DNA from: Mustelus asterias
Taxonomy: Eukaryota
DNA length: 64,000 nucleotides
Assembly: GCF_964213995.1 (NCBI RefSeq)
Contig: NC_135830.1
Location: 13,640,001 to 13,704,000 of the forward strand
Direction of reading: 5' to 3'
Under the pieces are notes generated by a model. That model searched no databases. It had not been told where the DNA came from and worked only from the letters and a program-made list of their open reading frames with translations. Shown piece after piece: positions 1 through 49,462 of the stretch. Position 1 is the first letter of the stretch. Every line of letters begins with the position of its first letter. Made by a program: the position numbers and the translations under genes.

Positions 1-682
1 CTCAAAATGTTAACTCTCTGAACAGATGCAGCCGGACCTGCCGGGTTTTTCTGCTTTTCTCCCTGTTTTTCCTTCTATAATCAATCAGAAACTCTCCCTG
101 ATTTTGAACATCTCGATTAAATAGGAACACACAGAGCCTGAGAAAGATACAGAGGAAGGGAGAGACAGAAAGACTGAGAGAAAAATTGAGAAAGATTTTA
201 AAAAGCAGAAAGATGAGGTGGCCAAAAATAAAAGTTGAGAAACAGAAGAAACAAGCAATACAGAGGCCCACACTTCGCGGACACGCCCTCAAACCACCCC
301 GGCAGACGCCCCCCCCCCCCCCCCCCGGGTTCGGATCCCTGGGAGGCAGCCCCGCCCCCTCCCCCATCGGACCCCTCTGGCAGGCAGGTCCCCCGGCAGA
401 GCACACCCCTAACCTACCTCGATCGTGGTCTCCCTCCACCATCCTTCCCGCTCGCCTTCAGTCCTTCGACAGCCTGCAGCACGTTCCTGGACACTAACTT
501 CGAGCCACGGCTGTAGTGAACGGGCTTCACACAGGTCCGCTGGCGTCTGCCGGAGGAGGGGGGGGCGGGCCCATTTGGAACCCTGGTGGGGAGGGTGGGA
601 TGAGGAGAGGGAGTGGGATGAGGAGAGGCCCACGTCGCCCTCTTGGGCGGGGGGGGGGGGGGGGGCTGGTGGGAGTGGAGGC

Positions 683-1540
683 GGTGTGACGTCTCATCCC
701 CTGGGTGGTTGGGGGGGGAGGAGGTGTGACGTCTCATCCTCTTGTGGGGGGGGAAGTAGGAGGGGGTGCGATGTCTCATCCTCTGGGTGGTGGGTGGGAG
801 GGGGTGTGACGTCTCATCCTCTCGGGGGGGAGGTGGGAGGGGAGGGGGTGTGAAGTCTCATCATCTGGGTGTTGGGGGGAGTGGATGTGGCGTCTCATCC
901 TCTGGGGGGGTGGGAGGGGAGGGGGTGTGACGTCTCATCCTCTGGGTGGTGGGGGTGGAGGGGATGTGACGTATCATCCCCAGGGGGTGTGGAGTGGGGG
1001 TGTGACGTATCATCCTCTGGTCGGGGCGGGGGGAGGGGGGGGGGCGGCCGATCCCTCCTGGCACCATCACTGGTAGACTACCAGCCACAGCCATTTCTCC
1101 CGCTCTCTCGCACCTGCAGGGAAGAGTAATCTGTGGCTGGTAGTGCACCAGTGATAGTGCCAGGAGGGATCGGCTGCAGACAGGCAGCGGAGCACCCCCC
1201 CCCCCCCCCACCCCGCCCGCGACCAGAGGATGATACGTCACACCTCCCCCCCCCCCCCCCCCCCAGGGGATCGTACGTCACACCCCCTCCCCTCCCAATC
1301 CCCAGGGGATGATAAGTCATACTCCCTCCCCTCCCACCCCACCAGAGGATCAGACGTCACACACCCCCTCCCCTCCCCCCCCGCACCCCAGGGAATGAGA
1401 CGTCACACCCCCTCCCCTCCCACCACCCCAGGGGATGATGTCACACCCCCTCCCCTCCCGCCCTCCCCATTGGATGATACTTCACACCCCCTCCCCGCCT
1501 CCCCTCCTACCCCCCCCCCCCCGCCCCACCAGAGGATGAA
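683..1540. repeat. G/C-rich ~38-bp minisatellite arranged as a large imperfect inverted repeat around a central hairpin
   Basis: About 9 units of GGTGTGACGT(C/A)TCATCCTCTGG+G-runs (683-1030) and about 8 reverse-complement units (1211-1540). Central arms 1047-1090 and 1131-1174 pair at 41/44. Confidence 0.9.
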
Positions 1541-1704
1541 CGGCAGAGAGGCTCTCACCATCTCTGCATTTTCTTCGCGCCCAGGCGCGTTCTGTCAGAT
1601 TTTTCCGAACTGCGCAAGCGCCTATCGTTCCGGCGGTGCTAATCCCCGCCCACTGGACCGGCGCCGGAAAAATGCGCATGGGCGCGCTGGAGCGCGGTCT
1701 CCGG

Positions 1705-2023
1705 GCTCGGGTTTATTTGACGCTTGCACCCGGCACTTCGTCTATAAATGGTGAGATCGGGCCCAATGTCTTTAATGCTAGTTCCAAGCCACTCTACTGC
1801 ACCTCTGCGTCTTGGACACCGCCGGGCTCAAAAGGCCGGGAGGTCATATCGATTGGCCGGAGCAGTGTGGAATCGGTCAAAAAAAGAGAACATGTATTTT
1901 CTTTGCGTATCAAGAATCTAAAAGTTGAAGACAGTGGCGCGCGTTGCTGCAGACCGTGTACAAATTCATGGCTCATGAACCCCGAGCACTGTGGAGGTGG
2001 CACCTTGTTGATTGTGATTAATG
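1705..2023 (+). pseudogene. Degenerate, pre-joined (V-D-J fused) IgNAR/NAR-TCR-type V domain exon
   Basis: Translation ARV...PLYCTS..TPPGSKGREVISIGRSSVESVKKREHVFSLRIKNLKVEDSGARCC-RPCTNSWLMNPEH-CGGGTLLIVIN follows the VNAR framework (short strand lacking CDR2, FSLRI.DL.VEDSG..C, GGGT J motif). A phase-1 donor G|GTAATT follows at 2024. The first Cys and the conserved Trp are lost. Confidence 0.75.
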
Positions 2024-2745
2024 GTAATTGAACTATTTTGTTACGGTTTAGCTCATGTGTTATCCGCACAAGATTGTTCATGATTAGTCTTTTCCATAAT
2101 CTTGCTTTTATTTGCTAAACCCGAAGGTTGGTTTGCTGAAGGACATTTAATTTAAAATTCTCAGAAAGTGGAATATTAAAGTCTGAGGAAATTTCAGCAA
2201 ATTTCACCACAATCGCATTGCAGACGATGCAACAAATGATGCTCCTGGCGTCATTGCATCAGCCCAAGGAACAATTGCTCAATAATACAAAGCGCTCAGA
2301 GGCAGAGAGCCCAGAGATGGAAGGGAGTCCACCAACTGGTGTCATTCACTCACTCATCTGTCCCACTTTAAACAAGAGTTGGGACAGCGGGAATACAGTG
2401 TGAACCGTTGCACCATAGAACTGACAGCACTCTAACCTAAGACATTATACCTTTCCCCACAACAAAACACACGTACACAACTGCTCGATAATTGCCAGCC
2501 TCCAGTCGAATAGTTGTTGTTTTGTGACAACAACTTCTCCCTTCTTTCAAAAGGGGAGTTAAAGAGTAGCGACAAGCTGAAGAAAAGCATTGATGTTGCA
2601 AGGATCTGTCGCCAGAGGCTCAGCAATGTGAATTGTAATAGCAGTTGAACTGGCTGAAAGATTGTCCTCCCGATTCGTACTCTGTGAGCAATGTAAACAA
2701 AATGTCCTTCAACAAATCAATCCTCAGCAAAAGCAAGAAAAAGCA

Positions 2746-2810
2746 AGGATCTGCCTAAATTTAAACTCGGTTCGCTGGGTTCAGAGAGCTCATCATTCGA
2801 CCAAAGAACC
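2746..2810 (-). pseudogene. tRNA-Gln pseudogene
   Basis: Degenerate match to the reverse complement of vertebrate tRNA-Gln, with an internal deletion. Confidence 0.65.
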
Positions 2811-2916
2811 TGGAACATAGCAACCACCTGCAAATGGTCACACAAATCAATTGACTCACTTGTTGTTGCTGCCACATTGAATGAAAGAGATCACATGCAT
2901 TGGCTGCAGTGTTCTT

Positions 2917-2988
2917 TGTTCTGTGGTGTAATGGTGAGCACTCGGGAATCCGAATCCTATGCTCGAAGTTCAGATCTCAGTGAAACAT
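2917..2988 (+). pseudogene. tRNA-Gln pseudogene
   Basis: TGGTGTAATGGTGAGCACTC...GTTCAGATCTCAGTGAAAC; stems and anticodon mutated. Confidence 0.75.
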
Positions 2989-3142
2989 TTTATTTTCCTT
3001 GTTAAAGCTGATGATTGATTTGCTGAAGGCCATTTATGTAAAATTCTCAGGAAGTGGAATTTTAAACTGAGGAAATTTCAGCAAATTCCACTCCAATAAC
3101 ATTGCAGACGATGCAGCGAATGACTCTCCTGGCGTTATTTCT

Positions 3143-3700
3143 TCCGGGTGCTCCGGTTTCCTCCCACAGTCCAAAGATCATAGAAGAAATCATAGAAACC
3201 CTACAGTGCAGAAGGAGGCCATTCGGCCCATCGAGTCTGCACCGACCACAATCCCACCCTGGCCCTACTCCCATGTTCCTACACATATTACCCGCTAATC
3301 CCTCTAACCTATGCATCTCAGGACACTAAGGGGCAATTTTTTAGCATGGCCAATCAACCTAACCCGCACATCTTTGGACTGTGGGAGGAAACCGGAGCAC
3401 CCGGAGGAAACCCACGCAGACACGAGGAGAATGTGCAAACTCCACACAGACAGTGACCCGAGCCGGGAATCGAACCCGGGAACCTGGAGCTGTGAAGCAG
3501 CAGTGCTAACCACTGTGCTACCGTGCCGCCCACAGTGTGCGGGTTAGGTTGATTTGCCATTCTAAAATTGCCCCTTAGTGTCCTGAGATGCGTAGGTTAG
3601 AGGGGTTAGTGGGTAAATTTATGGGGGTCGGGCCTGGGTGGGATTGTGGTCGGTGCAGACTCGATGGGCCAAATGGCCTCTTCCTGCACTGTACGGTTCT
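3143..3700. mobile_element. HE1-type tRNA-derived SINE (minus, 3179-3530) nested inside a plus-strand copy of the same SINE
   Basis: Full reverse-complement copy of the SINE seen at 36170-36510, flanked by the two halves of a plus-strand copy (3143-3178 and 3531-3700). Confidence 0.85.
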
Positions 3701-3981
3701 GGAGGATGATTGCTCAAGAATAAAAGAGCTCCACGGCAGAGAAACCACAGAGAGCAGGGGTCCCCTACTGGTGTCCCAATCTCAATAAGCGATGGAACGA
3801 TGAGGATAGTGGTTTCACCCGAAACCAGAATTGAACCGCGGTGCCTGACACTGTGAGGCAGCAATGCTAACCATTGTGCCACAATGCCAGAAAAGCTAGA
3901 GAGGGTGGGAGTTGACCCTACTGGTGTCATTCACTGAGTCACATTTCCCAATTTAAACACGAGTTGGGACGATAATAACCC

Positions 3982-4053
3982 TAGTTCCACCGAGATTCAA
4001 ACTCGGATTGCTGGATACAAAGTGCAGAGTGCTAACCGTCACAGAATGGAATC
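3982..4053 (-). pseudogene. tRNA-Gln(TTG) pseudogene
   Basis: Full-length degenerate match with a TTG anticodon. Confidence 0.8.
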
Positions 4054-4098
4054 GACATGGCCCGTGCCTAAACCACGAGGCATTTCTCCCAAAACATG

Positions 4099-4131
<33 letters not shown>

Positions 4132-4395
4132 TTGCTCAATTATAGCCAGGCTCCTGTCGAGTGGTTGTTGTTGTTTGACACCAACTGCTTCTTTCTTTCA
4201 ACAGAGGGGTTAACGTGTAGTGAAAAGTTGGAGAATCATTGATATTGCAGTTATCTGGCACCAGAGGCTCAGCAATGTAAATTGTAAAGGCAATTGAACT
4301 GGCTGACAAATTGTCCTCTCTATTTGTACTGTGTGAGAAAATTTGACGAAATCTTCATCAGCAAATCAGACATCAACATTGGCAAAAAAAAAACA

Positions 4396-4467
4396 AGGTT
4401 CCGCGGAGACTTAAACACGGATCACTAGATTCAAAGTTCAGAATGCTCACAGTTACATCACAGAACC
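4396..4467 (-). pseudogene. tRNA-Gln(TTG) pseudogene
   Basis: Full-length degenerate match followed by a T-run terminator on the minus strand. Confidence 0.75.
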
Positions 4468-5050
4468 CAACAGCAAATGACCACTCAAAGCATTTTACCT
4501 CTTTCATTCAATGTGGCAGAAACAGTAAGTGTGACAACATTGATGGATCCCAAGAATTTTGCTATGATTGATCCTAAATTGGTTGAGTGACAGGGAACAG
4601 AGGGTGATATTCCAGGGCAGTTTTTCAGACTGGAAGCCAATGTCCAGATGGTCACAAAGGGATGACTGCTGGGGCCCTTGCATCTGTGAGTTATATGAAT
4701 GGTTTAGATTTTTATTGTAGGAGGCTTCATCAGTAAGTTTGCAGATGATACAAATATTGGCGAGCTGGTTGCTTGGCCGGTGCAGACGCGAAGGGCCGAT
4801 GGGCCGCATCTGTATGACACTAATGCAGGGCATTTGACCCTTTGAGACATGGCTATTTCTTCTGATATCTCCCGATACGGCTTGGGAAGAAATGTTTTGC
4901 TGTGGATTTGGGGGGCAGTTTCTTGAGAGTTTTTTGCGCATGTCAATGGTGGCGCATAACAACATGTTGCCGCACTTGCTGTTGCTGCAACATTGAATGA
5001 AAGAGGTCAAATTGTTTGATTCCCCATTTCCAGCTGACTCCTGCGTTTTG

Positions 5051-5122
5051 GGTTCTGCGGTGAATTGGTAAGCAGTCTTACCTCGGAATCCAACGATCCG
5101 ACTTCAAATTCCCATTCAACTT
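5051..5122 (+). pseudogene. tRNA-Gln pseudogene
   Basis: Paralog of 2917-2988 in a duplicated cassette; heavily mutated. Confidence 0.6.
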
Positions 5123-5307
5123 TGGTTTTCTTTGCTAAATTTGTTTGCTAAAGGTTTTTTTTAATCCTCAGAAAGTAGAAATATAAGCACTCAGGAAACT
5201 TCAGGAAATTCCTCTATTGTTCGTCATTTATCGAAATGACATAGATGACTATGTGATGTGGTCGGGGGGGCGGGGGGGGGGGGGGGGGGGGACAGCGGTA
5301 CGCGTAG

Positions 5308-6253
5308 AATCAGTCGGTTTGCCGATTACAGAAAGATTTGGCCAGTGATTAACAGTGTGTTTGAGTGTCTTGAGTTACAGGAAGATATAGACGAGGTGGT
5401 CAAATGCTCAGATAAGTGGAAGATGGAATTTAACACTGAAAAGTGTAAGGTGATATACTTTGGGAGGAGTGATTTGACAAGGAAGTATGCTATGAAAGAA
5501 ATGCCGCCAGGGAGTTCGGAAGAACAAAGGGACCTTGGCGTGTTTGTCCATAGATCTCTGAAGGCAGAAAGGCAGGTTAATAGGTGGCGAAAAAGTAGGA
5601 GACACACTCGCCTTTATCAGTCGGGGTTTCGATTACAAAAGCAGAGAGGTCATGATGGAGTTGTATAGAGCTTTGGCGAGGCCACATCTGGAGTACCATC
5701 TGCTGTTCTGGTCGCTACATTATACGAAGGACGTGAACGCACTGGAAGGTGTGCAGTAGATTCACCAGAATGTTGTCTGGGATGGAACATTTAAGTTCAA
5801 AAGAAGGTCGGATCGGTTTGGATTGTTTTCAGTGGAGCAGAGAATATGGGCGACCTGATTGGGATGTTCACGATTATGAGGGGCATGGGCAGGATGGATA
5901 GGGAGCAGCTGTTCCCCTTTGTTGAAGGGTCAGTAATGAGGGGATACAATCTAAAAGTGAGGAGCGGGAGGTTTGGGGGGAGGGATGTGAGGAAAAACAT
6001 TTTTTTAATTCAGAGTGTGGTAACAGTGTGGAATGCACTGCCTGGGAGGGTGGTAGAGGTGGGATCCCTCACATCCTTTAAAAAGAGCTGGATTTTTTTT
6101 TTCTTGGCAAGCCAAAACATCCAAGTCTATGGGACAATTGCTGGCAAATGGGATTAGGTGGGCAGGTCAGGGCCTTTCATGCGTCGCTGCAGACTCGATG
6201 AGCCGAAAGGCCACTTCGACACTGTAATACTCTGTGATTCCGTGAATCTGTGA
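5308..6253 (+). mobile_element. 5'-truncated CR1 LINE (RT C-terminal part), degenerate
   Basis: W.MEFN..KC.V..FGR and QRDLGV motifs; short-repeat 3' tail. Confidence 0.9.
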
Positions 6254-10360: not shown

Positions 10361-11271
10361 TTATTTTCTCGGAATAGTTAGTTTACTAATTCGGTTCAGT
10401 GGACATTGGAGAGCATTTTTCAATTCTTCTCTGAATTTCTTCTGGATGGCTGCGTAAATAAAGGTGTTGGTGCAGGAACTAAGAAGCTGCAGCATGTTCC
10501 CAGATTCCTGGAGAATGAATTTGGGATCACTGAAGCTTTTAATGTTATAATCGTTTGTGATTCGCACATTCAAGAACTGTATAACATATGTCATCCACAA
10601 CAGGATGAAACTGCCAGAGATTGTGAAGAGTAAAATGATGGACTTTCTCCGGCTCTCCATCTCAGGGTCAGTCTGATTCTTTCCGTCATTGTCTGTACGA
10701 AGTCTCCTCCTGGCTCTACTGGCTGCTAGAATATGTCTGACGGTCAGAGCGTTGAACAGGAGAATTAGAAGGAACGGAGCACACGGGGTCAATATACAAT
10801 CAAACCAGTCATATGCTGTCCATAGCAGTGAAGTATACCGGATATCCTTCAGTTTGCAATACCAGGGCACATTGTCAACCATGTAAATAGGCTCGTGAAT
10901 AAAGTACCAGGGGATATTGGTTAAAAAGCCCAGGGCACAGACTGTTCCTATCACAACAGCCGCAGTTTTCTCGGTGCAGTATTTTATTTTCAATTTCTGG
11001 CAGCATATTGCCACAAAGCGATCAAAGGTAAACGTGACTGTTAACCAGACAGCACTCACTCTGGCTGCGTAAGTTACGACTGTGCTCACACTACACAGCG
11101 GGGTGATGGACAAGAAGCTGCCTGGAAAATAAATGGCACTGATACGATTTAATATCACAGCGGTGATAATGACCAGTAGATCTGTCACATTCATGGAGAT
11201 AAGGTATCGAGTGATACATCTCGAAAGACCACATTTTCCTCTTGACAGGATCACAATCGCCACTAAATTAG
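10361..11271 (-). CDS. GPR139/GPR142-like class A GPCR, coding exon 2
   Basis: Open frame with hydrophobic TM segments, DRF and NTFIY motifs. Acceptor ...TTTAATGCAG|CT at 11272/11271. Confidence 0.9.
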
Positions 11272-11749
11272 CTGCATTAAACAGAAGGAGAATTAACTTA
11301 CATGCAAAAACCACAATAATATCATCACATTGACCAAAATGCATGGACTCTTATTTTCTGCATCTGAAGCGATTTTCTGGGTCTGAAGAAACAACAGCTG
11401 ATTTAATAATATGAAGATGGACGTTAGATGGAGGCAGACATCACGGATGGAAGAAGTATATTCTTAATCATCAAAATGGATTATCTGTTTATCAAGCATT
11501 GACTTCTCAATTACCATTACATTTTACCGTGCACGGTAATGAATTAATAAAGTTTCTATTTCCGAAATCAACCAATTAGTGGAGTCTGATGACATTTCAA
11601 CGGGTATGGAAAATATTGGTGTTGATGTTTCCATGAATGGAGTAATTCGCTTACGAGGGTTGATTGGAGAAACGTGTCGAAATATTTGTCAAATGTCAAA
11701 AATTCATTCGGGTTCTTCGGAGAGACGATCGGGAGAAAACTGCTCACGA

Positions 11750-25135: not shown

Positions 25136-27993
25136 GGTAGCGTGGCCGAGCGGTCTAAGGCGCTGGATTAAGAACAAAGAACAAAGAACAACACAGCACA
25201 GGAACAGGCCCTTCGGCCCTCCAAGCCCGCGCCGCTCCCCGGTCCAGGATTGAATCCTGAATCCAGGATCCCCACCCAATTTTCCAGCCTATCTACATAC
25301 CAATATCCTATCCACCGAGCTGTCCCTCACAGCTACGATGCTTTGTTCATTACAACCTATTAACTTACCCCCACCCCCCCATTCCAGACCATGTGATCTC
25401 CAGGGAGAGGCGAAAACCCAGAGTGAAAAACCCCAGGGCCAATATGGGGAAAAAAAAATCTGGGAAATTCCTCTCCGACCCCCTGAGGCGATCGAAACGA
25501 GTCCAGGAGATCACAATGGCCCCGATCGGAAAATGCTTCCCAACCCTAGTCATTTCCACTCCCACGAACACCATATGAATCCCCTGCCCCCGAGACAGGT
25601 TCCCAACTATCCGCAGTCTCACTCTGTACTGGCACCAGCAAGATGATCGTAGAATGAAGCCTTGAAACGAGAAACCAGGAACAATTAGCCCGCGCCGCTC
25701 CCTGGTCCAAACTAGATCACTCTTTTGTATCCCTCCATTCCCACTCCATTCATATAGCTGTCTAGATAAGTCTTAAACGTTCCCAGTGTGTCCGCCTCCA
25801 CCACCTTGCCCGGCAACACATTCCAGGCCCCCACGACCCTCTGTGTGAAATATGTCCTTCTGATATCTGTGTTAAACCTCCCCCCCTTCACCTTGAACCT
25901 ATGACCCCTCGTGAACGTCACCACCGACCCGGGGAAAAGCTTCCCACCGTTCACCCTATCTATGCCTTTCATAATTTTATACACCTCTATTAAGTCTCCC
26001 CTCATCCTCCGTCTTTCCAAGGAGAACAACCCCAGTTTCCCCAATCTCTCCTCATAACCAAGCCCCTCCATACCAGGCAACATCCTGGTAAACCTCCTCT
26101 GTACTCTCTCCAAAGCCTCCACGTCCTTCTGGTAGTGTGGCGACCAGAACTGGACGCAGTATTCCAAATGCGGCCGAACCAACGTTCTATACATCTGCAA
26201 CATCAGACCCCAACTTTTATACTCTATGCCCCGTCCTATAAAGGCAAGCATGCCATATGCCTTCTTCACCACCTTCTCCACCTGTGACGTCACCTTCAAA
26301 GATCTGTGGACTTGCACACCCAGGTCCCTCTGCGTCTCTACACCCTTTATGGTTCTTCCATTTATCGTGTAGCTCCTCCCTACATTATTCCCACCAAAAT
26401 GCATCACTTCGCATTTATCAGGATTGAACTCCATCTGCCATTTCCTTGCCCAAATTTCCAGCCTATCTATATCCTTCTGTAGCCTCTGACAATGTTCCTC
26501 ACTATCTGCAAGTCCTGCCAGTTTTGTGTCGTCCGCAAACTTACTGATCACCCCAGTTACTCCTTCTTCCAGATCATTTATATAAATCACAAACAGCAGA
26601 GGTCCCAATACAGAGCCCTGCGGTACACCACTAGTCACAGGCCTCCAGCCGGAAAAAGACCCTTCCACTACCACCCTCTGTCTTCTATGACCAAGCCAGT
26701 TCTCCACCCATCTAGCCACCTCCCCCTTTATCCCATGGGATCCAACCTTTTTCACTAGCCTACCATGAGGGACTTTGTCAAACGCTTTACTAAAGTCCAT
26801 ATAGACAACATCCACGGCCCTTCCTTCGTCAACCATTTTGGTCACTTCTTCATAAAACACCACCAGGTTCGTGAGGCATGACCTCCCTCTCACAAAACCA
26901 TGTTGACTATCGTTAATGAGTTTATTCCTTTCTAAATGCGCATACATCCTATCTTTAAGAATCTTCTCCAACAACTTCCCCACCACGGACGTCAAGCTCA
27001 CCGGCCTATAATTACTCGGGTTATCCTTCCTACCCTTCTTAAATAACGGGACCACATTGGCTATCCTCCAATCCTCTGGGACCTCACCTGTGTCCAGTGA
27101 CGAGACAAAGATTTGCGTCAGAGGCCCAACTATTTCACCTCTCGTCTCCCTGAGCAGCCTTGGATAGATTCCATCAGGCCCTGGGGATTTGTCAGTCTTT
27201 ATATTCTCTAACAAACCTAACACTTCCTCCTTTGTAATGGAGATTTTCTCCAACGGTTCAACACTCCCCTCCGAGACACTCCCAGTCAACACATCCCTCT
27301 CCTTAGTGAATACCGACGCAAAGTATTCATTTAGGATCTCCCCTACCTCTTTGGGCTCCAAGCATAAGTCCCCACTTTTGTCCCTGAGAGGTCCGATTTT
27401 TTCCCTTACAACCCTTTTGTTCCTAACGTATGAATAAAATGCCTTGGGATTCTCCTTAATCCTGTCTGCCAAGAACATTTCGTGACCCCTTTTTGCTCTT
27501 CTAATTCCCCGTTTGAGTATTTTCCTACTTTCATTATACTCTTCCAGAGCTCCCTCCGTTTTTAGCTGCTTGGACCTAACATACGCCTCTCTTTTCCTTT
27601 TGACCAGTCCCTCAATTTCCCTGGTTATCCACGGTTCTCTAATCCTACCCTTCCTATCCTTCTTTTTTACAGGCACATGCTTGTCCTGTAGCCCTAACAA
27701 CCATTCCTTAAAAGACTGCCACATACCAGATGTGGATTTACCCTCAAACAGCCTCTCCCAATCAAGAGCTGCCAATTTCTGCCTGATCCCAATAAAGTTA
27801 GCCTTCCCCCAATCCAACACCTTACCCTTGGGACACCACTCATCCTTTTCCATCACTATCCTAAAGCTAACAGAATTGTGGTCACTATTTGCCACATGTT
27901 CCCCGACCAAAACTTTGAAGACCTGACCGGGTTCATTCCCCAGCACCAGGTCCAGTCTCTGCGGAGGCGTGGGTTCGAATCCAACCGCTGCCA
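25136..27993 (+). pseudogene. tRNA-Leu(AAG) split by a CR1 LINE (5' half 25136-25172, 3' half 27951-27993)
   Basis: GGTAGCGTGGCCGAGCGGTCTAAGGCGCTGGATTAAG | TCCAGTCTCTGCGGAGGCGTGGGTTCGAATCCAACCGCTGCCA. Confidence 0.95.
25173..27950 (-). mobile_element. Young 5'-truncated CR1 LINE with uninterrupted ORF2 (EN end + RT) and ~540-bp 3' UTR
   Basis: ORF 25712-27950 has no stops and carries QHGF, DFSKAFD, GVPQGSVLGP and FADD motifs; (GTTCTTT)n tail. Confidence 0.97.
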
Positions 27994-29524
27994 AAATACA
28001 TTTGAGTTTTGGTCTAACAGCTCAGATTAAGTGCAGGAGTGCGTGCGGTGTCGTTTTCGTCATGAACAATGAGCAGGGACATTGCCAACTTAAAACGTTG
28101 TTGGGGTAAAGCAGCGTGTGTGCAAGTGGCTCCTTTCGAGAGCGCACACACAGGCTGAATTTCTGACTGCCGAGTTGAACAACCTGATGAAGGAGCAGTT
28201 CTCCTGAAAGTTCGCAATTCCAAATAAGCTTGTTGGACTTTTAACTGGTGAGAATTCTTATTGTACCCACTCCAGTCCAACGCAAGCATCTTTGCATCAT
28301 GATATAAATAACAGGATTACAAACAGTGAGACTGTATTCCCTGCCCAGGAATTAAGGTGATGGACTTGAATTTTCTAACTGAAGTTCAAATCCTATCATG
28401 TACACTTCCCATCATTCCTCGTTCTAACCAGATATTTTCAGAATTAACCTGGCTCTTGTGATAACCACCGAACTACAGAAACACGGTGATGACCTCGGGG
28501 CAAGCAGATCCGGTTTACTGAAGAAACAACTAGACTGGCTCCAGAAGCCCATCTTTTGCCCACAGCAATTGATATTACATTGTCTCTGCTGATTTTTCCT
28601 GTCAAAATGAATAACGATACTTCCTACTGCATTAAAGTTTCGTAATAACATGTTCGAGAAAAAGTATTCATGACGTGTAAAGCAAATCAACTGAACACCT
28701 GAAATTTGCGGCATTTGATCACTTTCCCCCACAAATGCTGCTGCCTCGAATTCAATGCCTCAGAACACTCATCAACGCTTTTAACAGAGGTTATCCCTAT
28801 CAGATCTGGTGCTGCAGGGAACGTAATTAGTGGAGTAGGATTGGCTCACATGTCCCATGGAGTCTCCTCCGGAATTTAAGGAGATCATGACGAATCCCAG
28901 GAATCAACATCAATTTCCAAACGTATCCTGATGGCCCTTCATTCCCTTAGATTCCAAAAATATCTCCCCCTGAAACTTCAATATTCTCATTAAAAGAGGA
29001 TCTACAGACCTCTGGCGAAGGGTCACCCAGACTCGAATCGTTGACTCTATTCTCTCTCCGTAGATGCTGCCAGACCTGCTGAGATGTTCCAGCATTGTCT
29101 GTTTTTGTTTCAGATTCCAGCATCCGCAGTATTTTGCTTTTACCGCCACCATTTACATTCCCTTTGATTTATTTTCCATCACAACTTTGTCAACTCTTCC
29201 CCACGGCTCCCACCCTCACACAACATATCCCACACTTAAAGTATCAATCTTGTCCTCTTTTCCTGTCTTCGGCTTTGATGACTGACCATACAGATTTGAA
29301 ATGTTGGCTCTATTCTCTCTCCAGAGATGCCGTCATGCCTGTTGAGATTTTCGAGCATTTTAAGTTTTTCTTTTAAGTTCCAGAATCTGCAGTAATTGGC
29401 TGTTGACTGAAGGAGTCATTCGTGTTCAATCTAAACATGAGGTTGTTTTTTCCCGACAAACCTTTCTCGAGTATTTGAAAAACGCTGCAATGTATTGGTC
29501 AGATTAAAATGCTAATTTGTATCT

Positions 29525-45917: not shown

Positions 45918-45956
45918 AGTTTTTGCACGGGGGTGAGACTGCTTTCTATCACTGTG
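45918..45956 (-). other. Recombination signal sequence, 23-bp spacer
   Basis: CACAGTG (45956-45950), 23 nt, GCAAAAACT (45926-45918). Confidence 0.93.
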
Positions 45957-46263
45957 AGACTGAAAGCGCAGTAATAGCGGCCAGCGTCAGCCAGCTGCAG
46001 ACTCGAAATGGTTAAAGTGGTTAATTTAGCCAAGACCTGGAGTTCAGCAGAGAAACGGGGTCCAAAACCTTCCCCTCTCTCTTCGTGTGTACCCCAGGAC
46101 AATTTCAATGCAATGAACTGCAAATCCGTCTGTGGCTGCTGTCTGTACCAATATAAGACATAGTGGCTTGCTGTAGTGCTGTAGGTACATCGGATAGTCA
46201 CCGTTTCACCTTCTCTCCTCTCTAAAGACGGCGGCTGAGAAACAGAATCTCCATCAGCCGGAT
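45957..46263 (-). CDS. TCR alpha/delta-type V segment exon, apparently functional
   Basis: DSVSQ..GETVTIRCTYST..LYWYRQ..RFS..LTISSLQLADAGRYYCAF; acceptor TTACAG|; RSS follows directly. Confidence 0.93.
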
Positions 46264-46467
46264 CTGTAACATGTGTTGAAGAAGAGGACAAAGGTAAGTA
46301 TTGGGTGTGCTGCTGAAATAATATTAATAATTTACATACACTGGAGTTATGAAACAAAAACTAATAATGGCCGAAATACTCAGCAGCGTCAGGAAGCATT
46401 TTTCGAGGCCAGGAGAATTACAGTTTCTGATCGAGATAACATTTTACCAGATTGGAGTCATCCTTAC

Positions 46468-46513
46468 CGATAAGAAAGAGCCCGAACACAATGCAGACGG
46501 TGAGGAAATGCAT
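46468..46513 (-). CDS. Leader exon of the V segment (MHFLTVCIVFGLFLI)
   Basis: GCCGCCATG Kozak context, hydrophobic signal peptide, phase-1 donor G|GTAAGG in frame with the V exon. Confidence 0.9.
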
Positions 46514-48908: not shown

Positions 48909-49422
48909 ATGTGCTCCTCATTTTGGTTGCTGATAATAATGGTCTTGCCATTATGTCATCCTGACACGAAACGTTATCTCTGTTCTCCCTCTCACACATG
49001 TTGTCAGATCTGCTGAAGACTTCCAGCGTTTTCTTTGAGCCAATGTTTAAATGATCAGCGTCTGCCCCATGGACTATGTTCGCTCCCAGATTTTGAAGAA
49101 CATCTGTGTTTTATTACAGGGACAAATGCTGAAGATTCAGTGTTTCAAGATCGATCTGAATTATCGGTTCTGGAAGGACAGAACATAACATTGGACTGTA
49201 AATACTCAACAGCTGCTCTTCGAACCCTGTTCTGGTACACCCAGTATCCCGGCAAGCTCCAAGGCAGCTGATGAAGATTTTTAGCACGGACGATACCGAT
49301 AAGTCTCCGGATTTCCCAGATAGGTTCTCGGCTGCTTTACAGAAAGGAAACAACACTGTTCCTTTAAATATCGCCAGCACTCTTCTCTCTGACACCGCCG
49401 TGTATTTCTGTGCCATGGAGCA
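48909..49422 (+). pseudogene. TCR alpha/delta-type V pseudogene (leader from 48909; V exon 49120-49422) with a 1-nt frameshift
   Basis: EDSVFQ..EGQNITLDCKYST..LFWYTQYPGK / LMKIFS..DRFSAALQK..LSDTAVYFCAME. One base is missing near 49255 (expected GKAPRQL). Confidence 0.9.
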
Positions 49423-49462
49423 CACACTGGTTCAGAGATATGGCGAAACCTGTGCAAAAGTC
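49423..49462 (+). other. Variant 23-type RSS
   Basis: CACACTG, 24 nt, GCAAAAGTC. Confidence 0.7.

Follow-up and report, generated by a model that had tools for sequence, protein, structure and literature searches.

The stretch of DNA analyzed here (64,000 nucleotides from Mustelus asterias, hereafter the window; contig C71 of genome G000, positions 13,640,001-13,704,000) raises the question of how an exon of the shark NAR family came to have its V, junction, and J parts fused in the germline, and whether it still contributes to a receptor. The first-pass annotation had described a germline-joined V(D)J exon and had raised the possibility of a pre-joined V of the NAR-TCR type. The germline-joined NAR-family exon is confirmed, carrying an inherited join without an RSS, and the NAR-TCR assignment is not supported. 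Taken together, the results make it very probable that the exon is a dead, non-coding, transposon-truncated duplicate of a germline-fused IgNAR V(D)J exon that likely goes back to a single old RAG event in a germ cell.

The frame of 106 codons without a stop is present as described (1705-2022) but the VNAR framework assigned to it holds only for codons 22-106, where a framework lacking CDR2 is found; the first 20 codons (1705-1764, forward strand) match an interspersed repeat and are not V sequence. The V(D)J part is thus limited to 1768-2023 (85 codons), since 1520-1764 is repeat and DNA identity to an intact relative (described below) begins only at 1767. On the forward strand it consists of a VNAR remnant that begins with the last part of FR1, includes CDR1, HV2, and HV4, and ends at the second Cys (1768-1950, Cys at 1948-1950; defined by PDB matches and by alignment to the intact V), a CDR3-like germline junction of 13 codons (1951-1989) that shares 29 out of 39 nucleotides with the junction of the intact gene, and a J/FR4 segment (1990-2023) that follows directly as C-G-G-G-T-L-L-I-V, with Cys in place of the Phe of F-G-x-G. 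The J splice donor is retained in phase 1 (G/GTAATT at 2023/2024), and together with the GT about 27 nt of the J intron can be aligned to the intact gene (2024-2050). No RSS was detected within positions 1-6000 with up to four mismatches allowed, and a scan of the window gave no signal beside the exon (matches at 12052 and 28488 have no adjoining V). The profile comparison singled out in advance as decisive gave a divided result: the Pfam V-set score of the window peptide remains below threshold (17 bits, cut-off 26), whereas all 30 matches at E≤0.01 in a PDB sequence search are shark VNARs (best match 4hgk, E=1e-9), with the top-scoring stretches beginning at residue 22 or beyond. The first Cys and the Trp are both gone, as had been noted, but Cys22 was removed by an insertion and not by a point change. 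The position equivalent to Trp36 reads GCG (Ala, 1807-1809), and the Tyr-Tyr-Cys motif has become Arg-Cys-Cys with both Tyr residues replaced, leaving the exon without Trp36 and without the canonical Cys22-Cys83 pair.

The sequence in front of the remnant is a GC-rich interspersed repeat with a deleted left end (263-1764, forward strand) that replaces the leader, the intron, and FR1 of the V, and that contains inverted arrays of units of about 40 bp (661-1039 and 1200-1513). A genome search with 1520-1764 returned 1873 candidates, and 38 of the 40 that were scored show 82-89% identity and lie on 17 other contigs. The repeat belongs to a dispersed family that is abundant across G000. The peptide that had been taken for FR1 is read in the same frame in all four other repeat copies examined, each of which carries a stop at a codon within 1705-1764 that is TCG in all six copies fused to V sequence. 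In two of the four other copies the repeat ends in GGGCCC followed by TTA or TAA, an arrangement that we take to recall PIF/Harbinger elements. The break point lies at the Cys22 codon (1765-1767, forward strand), where two leftover bases match the tail of a LINE; we infer that they derive from the LINE that occupies this codon in sister copies.

When G000 was searched with the window peptide, 18 matches were obtained; they include six near-identical fused copies (86-100%, the window copy among them), four copies that a 1.8-kb LINE interrupts between FR3 and the junction, one copy with a short repeat inside J, an intact exon, and a single IgNAR V that is not rearranged. Another broken copy, the twelfth, is located on C650 and lacks the junction end. 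All 12 broken copies in G000 break at the Cys22 codon, and in six of them a 5' FR1 piece is found about 1 kb upstream of the break. Comparison of three copies showed that the gap is filled by a LINE fragment with a common starting base and 79-85% identity from copy to copy; with the LINE copies diverged to this extent the decay is old, and the suggestion that the open frame reflects recent decay is not borne out. Three broken copies lie on C71 and the other nine on small contigs that are possibly alternative haplotypes (haplotigs). The window copy is part of a segmental duplication that begins about 14.6 kb before the window and covers positions 1-28750 (forward strand), collinear with C71 11.76-11.80 Mb at 94-99.7% identity; the same block matches C166 at 98% over 18 kb. 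Three out of four subfamilies of broken copies contain stops, frameshifts, or extra insertions and one is open. The J donor is mutated in one of six sister copies (L006) and kept in five. Also within the duplicated block is a single-exon GPCR frame of the rhodopsin family (10364-11350, reverse strand, 329 codons; Pfam 7tm_1, E=1e-20). A LINE reverse-transcriptase frame of 769 codons (25715-28021, reverse strand; Pfam RVT_1) and many shorter LINE fragments account for several other frames in the window.

The intact exon belongs to a germline-joined IgNAR gene at C71 ~2,913,000-2,930,000 (reverse strand, L025 and L026, V exon at L026:9467-9798), 10.7 Mb from the window exon. Its order is leader, a 128-nt intron, joined VNAR exon, C2 pseudo-exon, C3, C4, C5, and Tm; C1 was not found in this gene. 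The V exon keeps Cys22, Trp36, and Cys83, its junction of 13 codons equals that of the window exon in length, and its predicted fold matches VNAR 4hgk (TM 0.94). All splice sites that were read are canonical, with phase 1 throughout from leader to C5, and C5 carries a secretory tail ending in Cys, followed by a polyA signal and the Tm exon. C2 is dead (it contains three stops, and its 3' part a LINE) and retains an AG acceptor that could trap splicing. The C3-C5 exons are 75-79% identical to those of a rearranging IgNAR cluster, at dS values of 0.4-1.1 between the two genes. The corresponding dN/dS ratios (V 0.29, C3 0.52, C4 0.27, C5 0.16, Tm 0.47) partly record the distant past, since a value of 0.29 is obtained for the dead C2 too; what counts is the contrast between three stops in 62 C2 codons and none in the 437 other codons. 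Codons 48-107 of the intact V, compared with run X13 from another organism, show 7.5 synonymous and 24.5 replacement changes and no signal of purifying selection. Upstream of the leader (at the start of L027) lies an octamer with one mismatch, compared with a perfect octamer in the rearranging cluster, followed by a TATA-like box. Protein database searches with the intact V and C4 returned conventional IgNAR/VNAR records only (three, five, and two matches) and no orthologue, in a database that holds few shark proteins. From its exon structure and splice phases the gene is predicted to make a heavy-chain-only V-C3-C4-C5 antibody with a fixed CDR3, and the prospects that it is a working antibody appear roughly even.

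The claim that the join is germline and not somatic is upheld, as the join is carried by 11 broken copies and one intact copy, by other samples, and by other organisms. Contigs of two other samples of organism A (records 23 and 17, both from the same study as the best-matching sample, with tissue and individual not on record) bridge the junction of this family with 6 and 7 other letters, respectively. In runs X21 and X13 the window V is hardly covered at 85% identity. The comparison across organisms was made on the intact exon with four of the 16 listed runs not labelled organism A, and the leader and the joined exon are found at equal length in contigs of all four other organisms so compared. 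In X13, X9, and X16 one contig each extends from the leader through the J donor at about 85% identity to the intact exon, and in X14 a single contig covers both sides with a middle part that is diverged but of the same length. Identity of these contigs to the intact gene stops one base before the ATG. Of the 11 indels recorded, eight fall within the 128-nt intron and one within the J intron; the remaining two lie in the X13 exon and compensate each other. The X13 junction has the same 13 codons and shares eight residues with the intact gene, seven with the window exon, and nine with the LINE-split copies; no stop is present in the X13 exon among the 40 out of 117 differences listed. An equal-length joined exon in all these organisms points to one old joining event. 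If the assembly had captured a somatic rearrangement from a lymphocyte, a reading for which nothing speaks beyond the general risk with blood-derived DNA, this would have to explain an identical join in so many copies, several of them interrupted by old transposons, as well as its presence in two other samples; the reading was rejected on the cross-organism contigs and its probability is negligible.

A pre-joined NAR-TCR V of the TCR-delta locus, the unusual case considered by the first-pass annotation, would fit the position of the exon in a part of C71 that also contains TCR V segments and NAR-TCR cassettes. However, proximity to TCR V segments says little, as linkage of IgNAR to TCR alpha/delta has been described (PMC12227049, section 6, available text) and such a neighborhood is therefore expected. 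The intact V shows 47-61% identity with IgNAR V and 35-42% with the NAR-TCR-like V of G000, which carry RSS and whose NAR-TCR label rests on layout. The phylogeny that had been proposed as a check (19 rows, including six of the 21 NAR-TCR-like loci) unites the window copy with two sisters and with the intact V in one clade (100/98), separate from the six NAR-TCR-like rows, whose clade (100/100) has a branch of 0.94. An AU test does not reject a grouping of the joined V with NAR-TCR V (p=0.14), so that the tree does not fix the exact branching point. The layout differs as well: both NAR-TCR cassettes examined have a supporting V downstream, at 2.8 and 6.2 kb, whereas the first same-strand V downstream of the window exon is a frameshifted TCR-type pseudogene 47 kb away (48909-49460, forward strand) and no supporting V-delta is found. 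The nearest TCR-type V, 44 kb away (45918-46510), is oriented divergently to this pseudogene and apparently intact (leader, open V exon, 23-RSS; Pfam V-set confirmed) but is no supporting V for the exon because of its opposite (reverse) strand and its distance. With a separate V clade, IgNAR constant exons in the intact relative, and no supporting V, the NAR-TCR reading was rejected and is considered extremely improbable. G000 contains at least 21 NAR-TCR-like V loci (L054-L074), in many of which a 12-RSS faces a 23-RSS J directly with no free D. Two further V segments lie 2 and 4 kb past the end of the window.

An IgNAR origin leaves the nature of the joining event to be considered. It had been argued from the retained donor that RAG joining, rather than a retrocopy, produced the exon; a processed retrocopy is rejected, as a leader intron and a J donor are still present in the intact relative, and the action of RAG itself is likely from architecture and precedent. 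This indirect route is taken because no D segment is recognizable in the junction above chance (the longest match of 5 nt is reached by 57-68% of shuffles). The alternative, in which the exon goes back to a V-J exon that had always been contiguous, or else to a retroposed transcript, could draw on this lack of a D footprint, on a J that reads F-G-x-G where IgNAR and NAR-TCR J segments of G000 read D-G-x-G, on the age of the lineage implied by its dS to the rearranging clusters, and on a placement between IgNAR and NAR-TCR V that the AU test does not reject. It is nevertheless very improbable: the V is nearer to IgNAR V than to NAR-TCR V, both of which are RSS-split, the intact gene is part of an IgNAR cluster in which leader and J introns are present and the C exons are separate, a J ending in G-G-G-T is found in other VNARs as well, and germ-cell joining is documented for shark light chains in the text available from PMC2193156. 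Two IgNAR clusters that are still RSS-split and rearranging lie on the same contig at 0.735 and 1.00 Mb (C71 735,000-760,000, forward strand, and 982,000-1,001,300, reverse strand); they have five C exons and are near the IgNAR of Triakis scyllium, and their RSS layout suggests four D-like segments, the first two in tandem duplication.

RAG joining of V, D, and J thus probably formed the ancestral exon, and the remaining question is whether its open remnant in the window has been put to a new use. A reading in which the repeat supplies a start codon (or an acceptor) to a new fusion exon that retains the V stump and its J donor finds some encouragement in an open frame of 163 codons (1540-2028), in the replacement of the repeat's own in-frame stop by TCG in every fused copy, and in the retention of an ATG at 1672 in all six of them. 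Yet the six copies with an open frame differ by 6 synonymous and 12 replacement changes, in keeping with neutrality (24-29% synonymous expected, p=0.25-0.42, a test with little power at only 18 changes), and dN/dS against the intact gene is 0.9-1.3. Residues of the Ig core are missing, only two of the six copies have AG at the end of the acceptor-like site, and one copy has lost the donor. AlphaFold models the window peptide at pLDDT 67.5, compared with 88.7 for the intact V, at similarly shallow alignments (5-6 rows). Stops and frameshifts are absent from all six open copies, and one subfamily has an in-frame 3-nt deletion. An open frame of such length is common by chance, since in simulations 85 codons remain stop-free with a probability of 0.38-0.44 at 8-10% divergence and of 0.16-0.23 with indels, so that repurposing is not needed to account for it. 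The leader and C exons that might have been expected nearby are also missing from the 164 kb searched (C71 13.58-13.744 Mb, queried with IgNAR C1-C5, joined V, NAR-TCR V, and TCR V): no leader or FR1 was found in the 60 kb upstream, no constant exon in the 60 kb upstream or the 102 kb downstream, and no Ig or TCR partner exon, the only matches being four TCR-type V segments 44-67 kb from the exon. A DNA search of G000 with the C3 exon identified three places, the intact gene and the two rearranging clusters, none of them near a broken copy. Repurposing of the window exon is therefore unlikely, and the dead duplicate remains the preferred reading.

The following course of events would account for these observations. 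In a single IgNAR cluster, RAG would have brought V, D, and J together in one event that preceded the split of this shark from organisms C, D, E, and F; one such gene is still intact at C71 ~2.913-2.930 Mb. A V-only duplicate received a LINE at the Cys22 codon; the break is seen in every broken copy and probably had a single origin. Segmental duplication carried the broken copy to at least 12 places. In the window subfamily, probably as a later step, a second repeat inserted at the end of the LINE and a deletion took everything to the left of this repeat, which would have left a stump of 85 codons in frame with repeat sequence. The stump presumably drifts neutrally, with no antibody made from it.

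The window exon itself is an ordinary pseudogene and its value lies in the gene that it exposes. The sharks of this group may have an invariant IgNAR not described so far, in which a fully germline-joined VNAR is combined with C3-C4-C5 in secreted and membrane-bound forms and which is kept in at least five organisms; on the evidence of gene structure the case for such an antibody, a natural nanobody of fixed specificity and the IgNAR counterpart of IgM1gj with the window exon as one fossil duplicate, is evenly balanced. A joined IgNAR that is old, single-copy, and in no need of a partner chain would have its whole binding site in a single inherited domain, open to expression and ligand screening, and the ligand question for germline-joined shark antibodies would for this reason become directly testable.

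Compared with known systems, the window exon and its intact relative share the V framework without CDR2 of IgNAR V (VNAR; PDB 4hgk; IgNAR of Heterodontus francisci and Triakis scyllium), and the intact relative has two canonical Cys only, a pattern called type IV in the accessible part of PMC12907318. Unlike in conventional IgNAR, V, D, and J are fused in the genome; in addition, the window copy has no leader, FR1, Cys22, Trp36, or C exons, and in the intact gene C1 is missing and C2 is dead. NAR-TCR, as described in the available portions of PMC12227049 and PMC4279169, likewise has a NAR-family V in the same antigen-receptor region but differs in its V clade, its J motif, and its supporting V-delta. 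Neither a fully joined IgNAR nor an IgNAR without C1-C2 was found in the literature searched (mostly non-subscription text without figures or supplements); the fully joined examples in the printed text available are IgM and light chains, and for IgNAR only pre-joined D segments. According to the text available from two sources (PMC4279169, PMC5192425), IgM1gj of the nurse shark is a fully germline-joined IgM without C2 that dominates in neonates, and reviews hold that germline-joined Ig clusters may protect neonates. The intact gene resembles IgM1gj, as far as those sources describe it, in its germline-joined VDJ and in a heavy chain that is predicted to be cut to three C domains, but IgM1gj is an IgM that pairs with a light chain whereas the intact gene is of the IgNAR lineage with the C exons C3-C5. 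Loss of C1 and C2 would also give a second IgG-sized shark heavy chain by a route other than that of IgM1gj. Among IgNAR loci, the consulted sections of two reports describe pre-joined D segments in IgNAR2, 5, and 6 of the bamboo shark together with three incomplete clusters (PMC8692893), and short IgNAR as a locus-encoded form without C2-C3 and as spliced forms without C4-C5 (PMC11641339). Germline joining and the loss of two C domains are common to these loci and the intact gene, but the bamboo shark and short IgNAR loci, as described there, still need somatic rearrangement and keep C1, whereas the intact gene is fully joined and has lost both C1 and C2.
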